Source of the DNA: Eledone cirrhosa
Lineage: Eukaryota
Reading direction: 5' to 3'
Length of the DNA: 64,000 bases
Assembly: GCA_964016885.1 (NCBI GenBank)
Contig: OZ024749.1
Location: 49,724,001 to 49,788,000, forward strand
Each line of letters starts with the position of its first letter. Position 1 is the first letter of the stretch. A program made the position numbers and the translations under genes. A model generated the notes under the pieces. The model was given only the letters and a program-made list of their open reading frames with translations, ran no database searches and was not told where the DNA came from. Shown in pieces: positions 28,501-59,136 of this stretch.

Positions 28501-28683
28501 ATGTATATCTTTAAGTGCCTGCCTGTATATACACACACACACACACACACACACACACACACACACACATATATATATATATATATATATATATACCTAG
28601 GTCCCGGGTTGAGTCGAGGATAACCACAGTAAGTAAGGTACTCAATACATGGCAGAGTAACATTTTTTTGTTTTATAGAAGGA

Positions 28684-28732
28684 GCTTCTACAGGGCTAGT
28701 ACTGTTTCATTCACATGAAATCTTCAGGAAGC
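28684..28732 (-). ncRNA. Type I hammerhead ribozyme (mirror copy)
   Basis: Reverse complement of 28736-28784 with one loop II substitution. Confidence 0.85.
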
Positions 28733-28735
28733 AGC

Positions 28736-28784
28736 GCTTCCTGAAGATTTCATCTGAATGAAACAGTACTAGCCCTGTAGAAGC
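28736..28784 (+). ncRNA. Type I hammerhead ribozyme
   Basis: GCUUC-CUGAAGA-U UUC AUCU GAA U-GAA-ACAG UACUAGCC CUGU-A-GAAGC. Predicted cleavage after GUA at 28779. Confidence 0.85.
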
Positions 28785-28952
28785 TCCTTCTATAAAATAT
28801 ATATATATATATATATATATATATATATGAATATATGTATGTGTATATATATATATATATATATATATATATATATATATATATATATGAATATATGTAT
28901 GTGTATATATATATATATATATATATATATAAATATATGTATAAATATATAT

Positions 28953-29012
28953 ATTTATCGACCCCGTAAGGAGGAATGGTAAAGTTAACCTCGGCAGGAT
29001 TTGAACTCAGAA
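28953..29012 (-). mobile_element. SINE fragment interrupted by a TA tract
   Basis: TTTATCGACCCCGTAAGG...AACCTCGGCAGGATTTGAACTCAGA. Confidence 0.8.
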
Positions 29013-30057
29013 TAATCATAAATAGATAAATAGATTTTTCAATATACGTTCAGGTTTCGTATTACCCCATGTTTCTGCATTACCTTGTGGTCATAATCAA
29101 ATACATCACTGCATTAAAGTATGGCAGAACTGTAGTCAAAGTTGTTCTTTTATTAAAGTCGGTATCTTTCAGAGAGTGTTGCCGAATCCAAATTCATATT
29201 AAGATATAGAACAATTAACCTATTCTAAATTTATGCCAATGAGCTGTACACTGGATATCATGTCTCTTCGATTTGCAGGAATGTTACAGATATTTGGAAG
29301 GCGTCATTACGTACGTAAGATGTTTGCTGAAGGCACCTCCGTTTAAAAATTGCCACTACATATATTTGAAACAAGTGAAAGAGGTATTACTACAATATCG
29401 CCAAATTTTGAACGTCTTCTGATATATATTTGATGAATTACCAGCATCCACCTTATAACAATCTACATCCAAAATTATGTCAACTAGCCATCTGAAATGA
29501 AGTAACTCTTTTTCGTTTCTTATGTTACAAAGCTGCGCTACTCTCGGCAAATATTTTTAGAAATGTGTCTCACTCCCTCGGACATTATGTGTTTCTTTTA
29601 TTGTCAAGATTTGTATATCTGACAACTTAACTATAACTATGAAAACTGCATGCTTAAGATGAAGTGTCTGGTTAAAAATCGATGATGATCTTCTGAAGTA
29701 AAATTCCTATATGAATAAATCACAAAGCATCAACATATATATTCAGGGATCTGAGCGTATTTCTGAGATTCCCATAAGCACCTATTGACTAGAATACTGA
29801 TATATTTATAATCTGAACTTTAAAGTCAATAAGTATTGGCATGTTTTGCAAGTTCCGACGCAAGTTTTAGTTTACATATCATTTCACATACTATCCATAC
29901 AAGAATGCCAAAATACACGAAATCACTAGTATGCACATATATGTGACTATCATGTTAAGTTAGTATATTGTTGAACAGGAAATATAGTGAAGTTTTGATC
30001 ACATTTATTGTTCCTTGTTATAACACATACTCAAGAATTATTTCCATAAGTAATAAT

Positions 30058-55005: not shown

Positions 55006-55167
55006 TATTTCTGCCTTTGTTACTCTAAAAATAAACTATAGCTTTGAAGAATTAGCTTTCAATGAATTCCCTTTTTTATCAACCTATGACCTACACCCAT
55101 CCCACTTCCTACACACATATATATATATATATATATATATATATATATATATATATATATATATATA

Positions 55168-55562
55168 TATATTAATAAGAGGAATTCCAACTTTGTCTGA
55201 TTTACTCGTTTTATTTACAATCCTTTAAAATATATATAATGGTATTGTAATGAAATAGTATGATAGAATATTAAATTCTAAGTGTTAATTGAACAAGTAC
55301 TTTCATGCTTTCGCAATCTTCAGGTTCATGATATGTGGTGACAGTCGAGTTTGCAATTTTCAACAGTTGAAAATTGCAAACTCGACTGTCACCACATATC
55401 ATGAACCTGAAGATTGCGAAAGCATGAAAGTACTTGTTCAATTAACACTTAGAATTTAATACTCTACCATACTATTTCATTATAATGCCATTATATATGT
55501 TTTAAAGGATTGTAAATAAAACGAGTAAATCAGACAAAGTTGGAATTCCTCTTATTAATATA
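55168..55562. repeat. Near-perfect palindrome, ~197-bp arms, 1-nt spacer (55365)
   Basis: Centre TTTTCAAC-A-GTTGAAAA; about five transition mismatches in the outer arms. Confidence 0.97.
55402..55440 (+). ncRNA. Minimal 39-nt type I hammerhead (mirror copy 55290-55328, minus)
   Basis: UGAAC-CUGAAGA-U UGC GAAA GCA U-GAA-AGUACU-U-GUUCA; GNRA-capped stem II, palindromic stem III. Confidence 0.85.
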
Positions 55563-58307
55563 ATCTTCTATACACAATCATACACACACGTGTATATTTA
55601 CCTATATATATATATATATATATATATATATATATATATATATATATATATATATATATATATTCAGTTATGGAGCTTTTAATTTATCCTACACAACAGA
55701 AGCATTTTATCAACAAATCTCATGAACAAAAGCAAATTTATATTAAAATCTTCTGGGTCAATATATGAAACCATATCATCGAATAATTCATGAACAAAGC
55801 CAGTCACGCTGGTATGAGAGAAATAGCCCCAAGAAACTCGCAGAAGCAAGAAACATCGTGTGTTGTAAGAAACAAATAAACCCCGAATAGGAAATTGCGA
55901 ATGAATAATATGTCATAAAAGAAATCTATAGTAAGTATCAGAAGATTTCTTACATCTGATCATAAATTTGTTAGTATAATATATGAAAATAATTAAGAAT
56001 TATAAATTCCCCTCTCAGAATGAAACCAGAACCTAAATTGTCAAATCATAGAATGTACAAAATTTCAATACAATACACACATTTAAAAATAATGTTGTAG
56101 CGATACCGAGCTCATCCTTATACATAAGACAACTTCTTAGTGACCTGGACACTTGCAGAAATGTGTTTGCACATCATTTTACTATAGAGTGATGTAGCTA
56201 AAGTAGATAGAATATTTTAACTATTAATGCGATGATGCTATTAAAATTGCACATAAAACGGGACATATATGGACAAGCTTTAATATTATCAAAGAGTATA
56301 TACTACATTTAAGAGACAGAGGCATCATAAGTGACATTACATCAGCATTAACTATTGGATGCATTTTTAATTTAGTGTCCATGAATCTACAAATAATTCT
56401 ATATAACCATGTCAAAATTACAAATCAGGTGAATATTACGTCTGTTCGATCATCATTCATATTTTAGAGACCGTCTATGAAAGCCTAGAAATAGAGTTAT
56501 GGATGTAAAAGCGTCATCAAATATAAAGTCGTAATAACTCGATATCAAACTATTCTTCCTAGAAGTGATCTAATTTGAAAACAGCCGGGAAATAATACAG
56601 CCGAGAGAGAAACTGGATAGATATATGCATACATAAACAAAAAGACATATATATCCATGTAACATTCATAAACACGCACACACTCACAAAAGTACACAGA
56701 GGAACACATAAATACATATATATGTGTATATATGTGTGTTTACACACACACACATATATATATATATATATGTTACACCTCTATTCTTTTAACTATATAT
56801 ATATATATATATATATTTATATATATATATATAAAGAGAGAGAGAGAAGGAAAGAAATAAAGAAAAAAGAGACATACAGGGGTGTATTCTGTCTGGAACA
56901 ATAACAAAATTGATTAAACCATAAAATTGTATCTTCCATGAAATACATAAAAGCAATTCGTGGCGACATAACTGCTCTTCTTTGCATTTGCTATCGATTA
57001 TTCTATAACGACTTCCACTTAACAACTTATAGTCCATTGGGCATTGGCGACCAATTGACCGTATAATACCGTATTTATGTCAAAAACTGAAGCCAACTAT
57101 GTGGAAATTAGTATCCGTTTTATCGATTATAACTTATATCTTTTCGCTTTATTGATCTTTATGTAACCTGTTGAATAATTACCCAATATCACTAGTTCGG
57201 TTGAACATCGTTTTTTTTCGTGTTTTATTTTTCAGAGGATTCTCCATCACACTTTTCATTTCCAGCTGTATATACTTAGAGGTATATGGTTTATGATTGT
57301 ACGTGATTCATTATAGTAACCTTTTTGGAAGATGTGCAACGTAATGAATAAAACTGTTCTTAGTATTACTGAGAAAGTTCAAAATACAAATTGTCTAGAG
57401 ATATGAAGTTAGATTTAGCTTAATGTAGTTATAAACTATATCATAACTTAACGTACCTGAACAGGTATATATATATATATATATATATATATATATATAT
57501 ATATATATATATATATATATATATATATATATATATATATATATATATATATATGTATATATATATATATGTGTGTGTGTATATGTATACATATATATAT
57601 ATATGAGTGTGAGTGTCTACGTATGTATATATGTATGTGTGTATGCATATAAGTCTGTGTATATATACACAAACGTATATATATATATATATATATATAT
57701 ATATATATATATATATATATATATATATATATATATACCTGTTCAGGTAAGTTAAGTTTGAATATAGTTTATAACTTCATTATATCAGATAGGGTGTGGT
57801 AGAAACCAGGTAGGTCATAGCCCACCAGGGTACTCGATACTTGGGATGTTAGAGTAAGTAATAAGTAAAGATGCATGACCCTGACAGCTGGCTCGGAAAT
57901 CAGCCGTCGCGGGCCTAAATCTTTTCACATATATATATATATATAAGTTAAATATAAGTTATATATATATATATAAGTTATATATATGTAAGTTTTCCCG
58001 GGTTCAATCGGGGGTAACCACAGTAAGTAAGGTATTCAATACATAGCAGTGTATAAACATTTAATATAGAAGTGACCGACTGAAACAGTTCTAGTTCTGG
58101 AGAAGCCATCTCTCTCTCTCTCTCTCTCTCTCTATATATATATATATATATATATATATATATATATATATATATATATACATTTTGAGTATATGATTCC
58201 ATTTCCTCAGTGGAATAACAACCCAACCAGGAACTGGGCATATCAGAGTATTGACAATGTTAAACACCTCAACAACGTGTGTACTCGTCTCTACCACACC
58301 AATTTGG

Positions 58308-58362
58308 ACTGCCTGAAGAGGTAACAGCCAAAGATGGCTGTCACCGAAATATATATAGCAGT
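58308..58362 (+). ncRNA. Type I hammerhead ribozyme
   Basis: ACUGC-CUGAAGA-GGUaACAGCCA AAGA UGGCUGUcACC-GAA-AUAUAUAU-A-GCAGU, with AATAAA immediately after at 58363-58368. Confidence 0.9.
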
Positions 58363-58560
58363 AATAAACGAAGCCAAATTTTGAACATTTGATTTATATA
58401 TATTATTTTACTTTAAATATATATATATATATATATAGGAACCTATTACCCACTCTACTGCCCTAAGTATTGAGTACTTTGGTGCGTTATGGTCCACCTG
58501 GTTCCTTACCACATTTCCTTCGTTATATATGTATATATATATATATATATATATATATAT

Positions 58561-59136
58561 ATTTCGTTTCTGGATTTGTTTAGCAAGATTCTTTATCTGA
58601 AATCGTGTGTTGAAACCGATATTGTTATACTTTGGGAGGGTCATGTTGCCAATAAGAAACACACGCACCAGTTGCTTTCACTTCAATTTAATTTATTAAA
58701 TATTTATAAATTTACAAATTTATAAATTTCTGGTTGGTTGGTTGGTTCCACAACCAGATAGTTGTTTATATATATATAGTCATAGTTCTTTCGTCACACA
58801 CTCTGTGACCTCTTCAGTGACTGGGGATTTCTTTCTTCGTTTCTGTGCCTTTCCTTTCTTCTATCCTACGCCACAGAAAAATGGCGTAGGATAGAAGAAA
58901 GGAAAGGCACAGAAACGAAGAAAGAAATCCCCAGTCACTGAAGAGGTCACAGAGTGTGTGACGAAAGAACTATGACTATATATATATAAACAACTATCTG
59001 GTTGTGGAACCAACCAACCAACCAGAAATTTATAAATTTGTAAATTTATAAATATTTAATAAATTAAATTGAAGTGAAAGCAACTGGTGCGTGTGTTTCT
59101 TATTGGCAACATGACCCTCCCAAAGTATAACAATAT
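58561..59136. mobile_element. Palindromic PLE pLTR insertion in (TA)n: ~255-bp arms, 8-nt spacer, 58-bp extension on the left arm
   Basis: 58619-58873 is the reverse complement of 58882-59136 with no mismatch seen. Confidence 0.95.
58933..58977 (+). ncRNA. Minimal hammerhead in pLTR (mirror copy 58778-58822, minus)
   Basis: AGUCA-CUGAAGA-G-GUCACA GAGUG UGUGAC-GAA-AGAACU-A-UGACU. Confidence 0.85.

Follow-up and report, generated by a model that had tools for sequence, protein, structure and literature searches.

Endonuclease-bearing Penelope-like elements (EN+ PLEs) are the closest described relatives of the structures analysed here, and the available text of the PLE papers already describes arms in head-to-head orientation, palindromic junctions and a tail confined to one side (PMC3846280, PMC8557442). 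As here, an inverted, 5'-truncated copy lies head-to-head with its partner, the tail is found at a single end, partial tandems and (TA)n targets are common to both, and an upstream RT is combined with a C-terminal GIY-YIG. The tails are longer here (42-100 nt versus 30-40 nt) and many units are tiny (about 200 nt), unlike the published elements (PMC3846280, PMC8557442). As far as these texts go, self-priming is proposed or the mechanism is left open, the origin of tandem and inverted structures being called an open question (PMC8557442), whereas the counts given below favour double priming. In vitro, the protein of the PLE Poseidon of Anolis cuts and extends both strands and two start sites bound the tail; AT-rich targets, cutting and extension of both target strands and a dispensable hammerhead agree with the reading given here (PMC11167929). 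The parts of that paper considered here do not link the two start sites to an inverted arm and report no strand difference in the choice of start site, whereas nearly every inversion described here uses each site once.

LINE-1 twin priming is similar in that two cDNAs arise from both nicks with their 3' ends outward and meet at a micro-complementarity joint, with an internal duplication when one cDNA passes the primer of the other (10.1101/2024.08.27.596794, available text). LINE-1 uses its poly(A) tail and a chance internal site, and its pieces are mostly non-overlapping; in our inversions the second site is a fixed one and the overlap of the arms is nearly complete. Three of our families (B, C and E) also resemble the non-LTR retrozymes, as portrayed in the text available to us (PMC7229834, 10.64898/2026.07.22.740005), in being tandem non-coding monomers of about 490-530 nt with a type I hammerhead; tandem units are present at loci L064, L291 and L329. 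They differ in showing PLE-type inverted arms and tails, which, judged from sequence, would be in line with mobilisation by a PLE protein.

The window is a stretch of 64,000 nucleotides of Eledone cirrhosa DNA (contig OZ024749.1), in which seven ribozyme-bearing inversions had been predicted to share one polarity, with 5' ends inward and 3' ends outward. This is borne out at all seven sites, where the hammerhead-homologous segment lies on the minus strand in the left arm and on the plus strand in the right arm (chance of full agreement 1 in 64, two-sided), in agreement with the genome census described below. The core-plus-stem structure finder returned zero matches on the opposite strand of all 14 arm segments. 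The very small spacers were also confirmed, namely 3 nt at 28733-28735 and 44217-44219, 1 nt at 55365 and 8 nt at 58874-58881, the last being element-derived in plus sense. The arms are identical to 98.4% (28.7 kb), 89.0% (33 kb), 87.4% (42.4 kb), 90.7% (44.2 kb), 90.1% (46 kb), 97.4% (55.4 kb) and 100% (58.9 kb). At 33, 42.4 and 46 kb the structure goes beyond a simple two-arm palindrome, being composed of pieces of ~500-nt tandem monomers. While the seven inversions are real, the limits originally drawn for them left out five one-sided tails (28601-28670, 44308-44393, 45747-45829, 55560-55602 and 58563-58618), and the one-sided tail as a feature was absent from the original prediction.

Table 1. 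Arms of head-to-head pairs in the window
Feature	Position	Strand	Details
Family A left arm, long end	28601..28732	-	tail 28601-28670, hammerhead 28684-28727
Family A right arm, short end into (TA)n	28736..28799	+	hammerhead 28741-28784
Extra pair, family G relative, tailed left arm	31822..31909	-	absent from the original prediction
Extra pair, family G relative, right arm	31910..32690	+	ends short, into (TA)n
Family B left arm, ~490-nt monomer in partial tandem	32843..33345	-	irregular 3' end, hammerhead 32870-32945
Family B right arm	33346..33643	+	intact core at 33409, damaged stem I, partial tail
Extra family D head-to-head pair	38158..38373		tailed arm 38158-38308 minus, short arm 38326-38373 plus
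Family C left arm, short end	42432..42693	-	core intact at 42669
Family C right arm, one whole ~530-nt monomer, short end	42688..43221	+	core mutated at 42980
Family D left arm, short end	44130..44216	-	degenerate core at 44198
Family D right arm, long end	44220..44393	+	variant core at 44238
Family E left arm, long end	45747..46302	-	hammerhead 45996-46065
Family E right arm, partial tandem, short end	46304..46898	+	core mutated at 46657
Extra family G pair without hammerhead	54795..55004		short arm 54795-54902 minus, tailed arm 54905-55004 plus
Family F left arm, short end	55168..55364	-	hammerhead 55290-55323
Family F right arm, long end	55366..55602	+	hammerhead 55407-55440
Family G left arm, long end	58563..58873	-	tail 58563-58618, hammerhead 58778-58817
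Family G right arm, short end	58874..59136	+	8-nt spacer included, hammerhead 58938-58977

Three more head-to-head pairs lie in the same interval (31822-32690, 38158-38373 and 54795-55004). A short TA run separates the arms of the family D pair at 38158-38373, which may represent one or two events. The right arm at 31910..32690 carries a GIY-YIG-like ORF end (71.5% to the ORF end of locus L010) followed by the 3' UTR, with a hammerhead-like core at 32432 where the stricter finder made no call. The arms of the 54.8 kb pair are staggered by ~66 nt, and its flanks carry a 17-nt target duplication, the only one that could be read. A further inverted pair, around (TA)n at 57.4 kb, is single-copy sequence and was rejected on that ground as a PLE counter-example.

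All ribozyme calls stem from our own core-plus-stem finder, which gave 100 matches versus 4 in the reversed control; no hammerhead family was among the best 150 of 246 Rfam matches, which were hairpin and microsatellite miRNA noise. A hammerhead had been claimed for both arms of each site. The homologous segment is indeed present throughout, but a complete predicted hammerhead is found in both arms at only three of the seven sites (28.7, 55.4 and 58.9 kb). The core of the right arm carries mutations at 42.98 and 46.66 kb, the damage at 33.4 kb is in stem I, and the family at 44.2 kb has CAGAAGA instead of CTGANGA at 60/60 loci, with an extra change in the left arm. Among the family loci collected, core plus stems, predicted to form type I hammerheads, were found in most loci of all seven families (15/30 to 60/60). 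The idea that the layout is linked to minimal hammerheads acting as dimers gained no support: the same head-to-head arrangement occurs in the 54.8 kb pair without a hammerhead, in families with short and with long stem III alike and, according to the available text, in Naiads, which have no hammerheads (PMC8557442), and hammerhead mutants had no effect on insertion in vitro in the experiments considered here (PMC11167929). The hammerhead would be a passenger during the integration step.

Pfam matches to GIY-YIG lie upstream of families F (L045, E 1.7e-5) and G (L010, E 4.5e-5), with the same sense as the hammerhead, which fixes the orientation of the element; a match to RVT_1 in L010 is weak (E 0.019). 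A GIY-YIG-like ORF end was seen by eye in family D without a Pfam match, no GIY-YIG or RT coding was seen upstream of families A, B, C and E, and four ORF pieces of the window had no Pfam match. Of 138 inversions, 137 have a TA run next to them on one or both sides. Together with the census and the end types, the upstream GIY-YIG supports the predicted PLE origin, and the seven inversions are the 3' ends (pLTRs) of PLEs or of PLE-type tandem hammerhead repeats.

The orientation of inversions was surveyed in genome stretches taken at even intervals and totalling 0.99 Mb. With the family references, all 15 direct joins were head-to-head and none tail-to-tail, while 8/8 tail-to-tail pairs had a (TA)n run in between; no fragment of family B or C turned up in this sample. 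The 28 pairs overlapping a hammerhead comprised 26 head-to-head and two tail-to-tail pairs, one of the latter being the ribozyme's own long stem. Tail-to-tail inversions are the rarer kind in these counts, and those observed probably reflect independent insertions into one (TA)n or into adjacent ones. A broader census using a hammerhead-flank library (63 head-to-head, 31 tail-to-tail, 5 ambiguous, 128 unoriented) was set aside because most tail-to-tail calls relied on one weak library match each and are probably unrelated repeats in the flanks; its six tail-to-tail pairs with at least five matches all had 15-100% microsatellite between the arms. Family loci were collected as the best-scoring 30 per search rather than as a random sample, and 223 remained after 17 duplicates had been dropped from 240. 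An inverted, 5'-truncated partner adjoined head-to-head in 138 of the 223, with a tail-to-tail neighbour in four. No adjacent inverted arm was seen at 85/223 loci, and tiny inverted remnants were found in only 3/73 apparently solo copies examined, which indicates that double extension is not obligatory. A tail-free search with family G returned no results, so that the counts for G are biased toward tailed copies.

The two outer ends of an inversion are of different types. Where both lie at canonical sites, one arm stops at the long end of its family and the other at the short end in 99 of 105 inversions, and in 56 of 59 where the query contained no tail; six have like ends (three long/long and three short/short, including the family C pair at 42.4 kb), and in 33/138 at least one end lies off both canonical sites. 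As in LINE-1-type twin priming, at the level of genomic signature, both outer ends lie at what would be priming sites and the arms are not mutual copies. The family-locus counts and end types support the predicted single integration mechanism, and we propose that PLE 3' ends are probably inserted head-to-head into (TA)n by twin priming. Each cut target strand would prime its own cDNA, one beginning at the family's long 3' start site and the other at the short site, and the growing ends of the two cDNAs would then be connected through microhomology or end joining. That the long and short ends are reverse-transcription start sites is suggested by analogy with the available data on Poseidon (PMC11167929). 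Where the template is short and both cDNAs run to nearly the same 5' position, frequently a small natural palindrome, a tiny spacer would result. Microhomology of at least 4 nt was counted at 28/81 junctions versus about 2% by chance; overlapping alignments and a family F centre that recurs inflate this figure. In family E, both ends are followed by a GCTC...GAGC-type hairpin; the same holds loosely for C, and in D the hairpin comes after the short end. No such hairpin was seen in families A, F and G or in the B copy inspected, and none of these end hairpins had a fold z-score below -2.

The original prediction offered two mechanisms, priming from both ends of a break and cDNA snap-back, in which a single cDNA folds at its 3' end and copies itself into the inverted arm. 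End types, arm reach and one chimeric locus favour the former, and plain snap-back appears unlikely. It would account for flush or nearly flush junctions, the arms reaching to within 15 nt of each other in 40 of 99 inversions, for the small natural palindromes at the centres of families A and F, and for alleles usually common to partner arms. The tailed arm extends further 5' in 28 of the 99, nested as snap-back requires; yet the copy must fit inside its template, and in 29 (plus two ambiguous cases) the tail-less arm extends at least 15 nt further, in some by hundreds, so that either arm contains sequence missing from the other. With 29 versus 28, neither arm is a plain copy of the other. Furthermore, family G copies that share a 5-nt or a 9-nt centre may carry the tail on one arm or on the other, and snap-back leaves the fixed second end, 42-100 nt inside the first, unexplained. 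It may supply the central joint once both ends have been primed. Arm reaches in families B-E are weakly anti-correlated (rho -0.30, p 0.03, n 51), which may be ascertainment, and staggering could arise via later deletion at the palindrome centre or spacer flipping.

Partner arms share subfamily alleles far more often (122/165) than arms of other loci do (1050/3651), and the template would therefore usually be one RNA or one source gene. The idea of two RNAs would hold at best for a minority, most clearly L022, where two subfamilies are joined and the arms differ at 5/5 subfamily sites, a union that neither snap-back nor a single hairpin can produce, although it could come via gene conversion or mis-assembly. 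The published alternative, as given in the available text, is that an antisense RNA serves for self-priming and the resulting hairpin is then trimmed by the endonuclease (PMC3846280), with the tail left by endonuclease resolution (PMC8557442). We regard it as highly unlikely here, even though it yields head-to-head polarity and junction palindromes and a staggered cut could leave a one-sided tail: a fixed cut should place every tail on one particular arm with respect to the spacer, yet both placements occur (42 staggered, 35 nested), loops hundreds of bases long are often closed by an overlap of 0-2 nt (49/81), and in vitro target DNA primes on sense RNA, according to the part of the study considered here (PMC11167929). 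Recurrent identical centres, seen at many loci of families A, F and G, might instead suggest ready-made palindromes copied as units, by MITE-like or master-copy spread. Such copying keeps the tail on one side of the spacer, yet both arrangements exist, the G centre is found in two subfamilies and other centres vary continuously; we give this explanation very little credence.

An assembly or library fold-back artefact seems extremely improbable. It might be suspected at 58.9 kb, where the arms are 100% identical over 255 nt and the centre is known from the assembly alone, but six of the seven pairs differ by 1.6-12.6%, tails are one-sided, flanks differ, the target duplication frames the 54.8 kb pair, and short-read contigs (public run X1) contain at least seven family G left-arm/right-arm joints among the 15 listed of 70. 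The 2026 raw reads come from reduced-representation libraries with fixed start places; strand-change joints of uncertain polarity were seen in 83, 109 and 83 reads at 58640/58657 and in 8, 36 and 3 at 58619.

Returning to twin priming, we are also inclined to think, with less confidence, that PLE integration is routinely an asymmetric double priming, in which a dimeric enzyme uses two fixed RNA sites, one per cut strand and at times on two RNAs. If true, this single rule would account at once for the inverted pLTR, for a tail on one side and for head-to-head polarity, and would take the place of self-priming as published; no such model for PLEs was found in the non-subscription literature searched. 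A point against twin priming is that the available Poseidon text reports no strand difference (PMC11167929), which gives no reason for each insertion to use each site once. The head-to-head polarity itself is known, and the added value lies in the census counts: one long and one short end in 99/105, the tail on either arm and a single chimera of two subfamilies tell the candidate mechanisms apart and lead to sharp predictions for the in vitro system already available. With hammerhead motifs at a density of ~100 per Mb and 44 of 97 motifs within inversions, these elements could be a major source of the genome's hairpin RNA. Modelled as a hairpin with a masked ribozyme, the palindrome RNA is predicted to have 94-98% of its bases paired.

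The inversions are real, widespread and mostly known already, and our census contributes testable evidence on an unsettled mechanism. In the relevant sections of PMC3846280, head-to-head (5' ends inward, 3' ends outward) is the most frequent arrangement of Penelope-like elements (PLEs), palindromes are noted at the junctions and self-priming on an antisense template is put forward as the mechanism. The structural sections of PMC8557442 describe an inverted 5'-truncated copy with a one-sided tail, also in Naiads without hammerheads, and term the origin of such PLE structures undefined. 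Extracts of PMC4209133 report pairs of minimal hammerheads at distances of 100-700 bp, with the two members on opposite strands, and propose dimeric action. Those of PMC11167929 describe a PLE protein that cuts and extends both target strands, two start sites bounding the tail, and normal insertion by hammerhead mutants.

The window has a GC content of 31%, is rich in (TA)n and belongs to a genome of 3.0 Gb. After masking of microsatellites, self-comparison recovered all seven inversions, with left/right arm identities of 87.4-100%. The single polarity claimed in the original prediction was confirmed, as the hammerhead-homologous segment lies on the minus strand in the left arm and on the plus strand in the right arm at 7/7 sites. 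The tiny spacers were also recovered, measuring 3, 3, 1 and 8 nt at 28.7, 44.2, 55.4 and 58.9 kb, respectively. A complete predicted ribozyme is present in both arms at only three of the seven sites; at 42.98 and 46.66 kb, the core in the right arm carries mutations. Ribozymes were called with a purpose-made finder (100 matches in 0.99 Mb versus 4 in reversed sequence); an Rfam scan of the window gave no hammerhead among the best 150 of 246 matches.

Searching the species' own genome with each site defined families A-G (see table). In families F and G, the RT and GIY-YIG coding pieces lie upstream of the ribozyme in the same sense, with Pfam GIY-YIG matches at E values of 1.7e-5 and 4.5e-5, respectively; the GIY-YIG-like ORF end of family D was judged by eye, and a Pfam search with it returned no match. 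Families B, C and E resemble non-LTR retrozymes in their tandem monomers of ~490-530 nt. In each family, two 3' ends are preferred, a long and a short one spaced 42-100 nt apart, each of which abuts (TA)n. The segment that separates these ends is the PLE tail; it lies outside the limits originally drawn. In family E, a small GCTC...GAGC hairpin lies shortly beyond each of the two 3' ends; in C this holds loosely, and in D the hairpin is found past the short end. In the family D core, A replaces the conserved U4 at 60/60 loci with the stems retained (window 44238-44283; L091-L120, L220-L249); judged by sequence, this core may be either a natural variant that has become fixed or a ribozyme that is dead yet still spreading.

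Polarity was assessed in 99 evenly spaced 10-kb stretches of the genome, in which 44 of 97 hammerheads lie inside an inverted pair. Head-to-head order was found in 26 of 28 such pairs; the remaining two are the long stem of a ribozyme itself and a pair whose arms are separated by (TA)n. With the seven family references, the same sample gave 20 head-to-head versus 8 tail-to-tail pairs, with a TA run of at least 12 nt between the arms in all 8 of the latter, and direct joins were head-to-head in 15/15 cases. Equal frequency of tail-to-tail inversions genome-wide, which had been named as a finding that would refute a single polarity, was thus not observed. A looser census (63 head-to-head, 31 tail-to-tail) was set aside because it was contaminated. 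After removal of 17 duplicates from 240, and counting the seven of the window, 223 family loci remained, which are top search matches rather than a random genome sample. Of these, 138 adjoin a head-to-head partner, and 4 have a neighbour in tail-to-tail order. Tail-to-tail pairs do occur, but look like separate insertions into common microsatellites.

Both outer ends are canonical in 105 of the 138 inversions, 99 being long/short, 3 long/long and 3 short/short; tail-free queries alone gave 56, 0 and 3, respectively. The 5' reach in the 99 long/short inversions is further in the tail-less arm in 42, further in the tailed arm in 35 and flush in 22; at a 15-nt margin, the tail-less arm is ahead in 29 (with 2 more from tandems that are ambiguous), the tailed arm in 28 and neither in 40. 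In staggered inversions, each arm carries sequence absent from its partner. This is impossible for a snap-back copy, in which the inverted arm is cDNA folded back and copied, so that of the two mechanisms originally offered, snap-back is disfavoured and priming from both ends of a break is favoured, although staggering could be mimicked by later deletion or flipping at the palindrome centre. End types, stagger and the partial account taken from PMC11167929 jointly favour twin priming, in which two cDNAs would be primed, one from each of two fixed start sites bounding the tail. Such priming would be akin to L1 twin priming as outlined in part of 10.1101/2024.08.27.596794. Several observations speak against twin priming or are unexplained: ends are off-site in 33 inversions, an adjacent inverted arm is missing at 85 of the 223 loci, with a small remnant in just 3 of 73 inspected, and the reaches of the two arms are weakly anti-correlated.

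Rare alleles are common to partner arms in 122/165 cases versus 1050/3651 for arms of other loci; the template is therefore usually one RNA or one source. At one locus (L022:1178-1765), head-to-head arms around a 5-nt centre come from two family G subfamilies at 5/5 sites, a sequence pattern suggesting that two RNAs are used at times; gene conversion or mis-assembly is a possible origin of this chimera. Weaker two-subfamily cases are L095 and L227 in family D and L338 in family E. Junctions outside family A (n=118) are overlapping in 65, blunt in 16 and carry extra bases in 37 cases. Tiny spacers are concentrated in families A, F and G, whose arms start at almost one base, probably the 5' terminus of the template. 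Numerous family G arms begin at one base within a 9-nt motif (window 58878-58886), and this common start may mark the transcription start of the pLTR, the PLE terminal repeat. We take the motif to resemble a YY1 site.

That the inversions are fold-back artefacts of assembly is argued against by diverged arms, a tail on one side only, differing flanks and the presence of a target duplication. Short-read contigs of run X1 contain 7 left-to-right family G joints among the 15 joints listed; the 58.9 kb centre is known from the assembly alone.

Folding predicts that 94-98% of bases would be paired in read-through RNA of the 28.7, 55.4 and 58.9 kb palindromes. As the antisense arm is transcribed first in head-to-head order, the ribozyme would be masked inside such a hairpin.

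Inverted flanks of 44 bp (89%; window 57421-57464 and 57739-57782) enclose a 274-nt (TA)n-rich run; they are single-copy in the genome and were rejected as a PLE. Copies recur every 4.2-4.9 kb at L045-L048, L244-L246 and L003-L004, which are tandem arrays or local duplications.

Families and further features of the window
Feature	Window position	Strand	Remarks
Family A	28.7 kb		~135-nt unit
Family B	33 kb		tandem monomer
Family C	42.4 kb		tandem monomer
Family D	44.2 kb		GIY-YIG-like ORF end
Family E	46 kb		tandem monomer
Family F	55.4 kb		RT + GIY-YIG coding pieces upstream
Family G	58.9 kb		RT + GIY-YIG coding pieces upstream
Staggered example	58.9 kb		spacer on short arm, tail on opposite arm
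Staggered example	54.8 kb		66-nt stagger, without hammerhead, 17-nt target duplication
Decayed RT/GIY-YIG-like ORF pieces, Asn-rich stretch	14690-17895	minus (ORF pieces)	ORF 70% to L010
Hammerhead-like core	14690-14736	minus	
Tailed family-G-like end	17822-17895	plus	
Long family D copy	33738-35122	plus	endonuclease-like ORF end, variant hammerhead at 35053
Partnerless hammerhead or hammerhead-like cores	43541, 52430, 52851, 58313	plus	
Partnerless hammerhead or hammerhead-like core	62634-62690	minus	
Dispersed short repeat family	723-993, 2423-2617, 8001-8167, 22451-22555, 28950-29022, 30053-30194, 36523-36724, 38548-38772, 61750-61906	both
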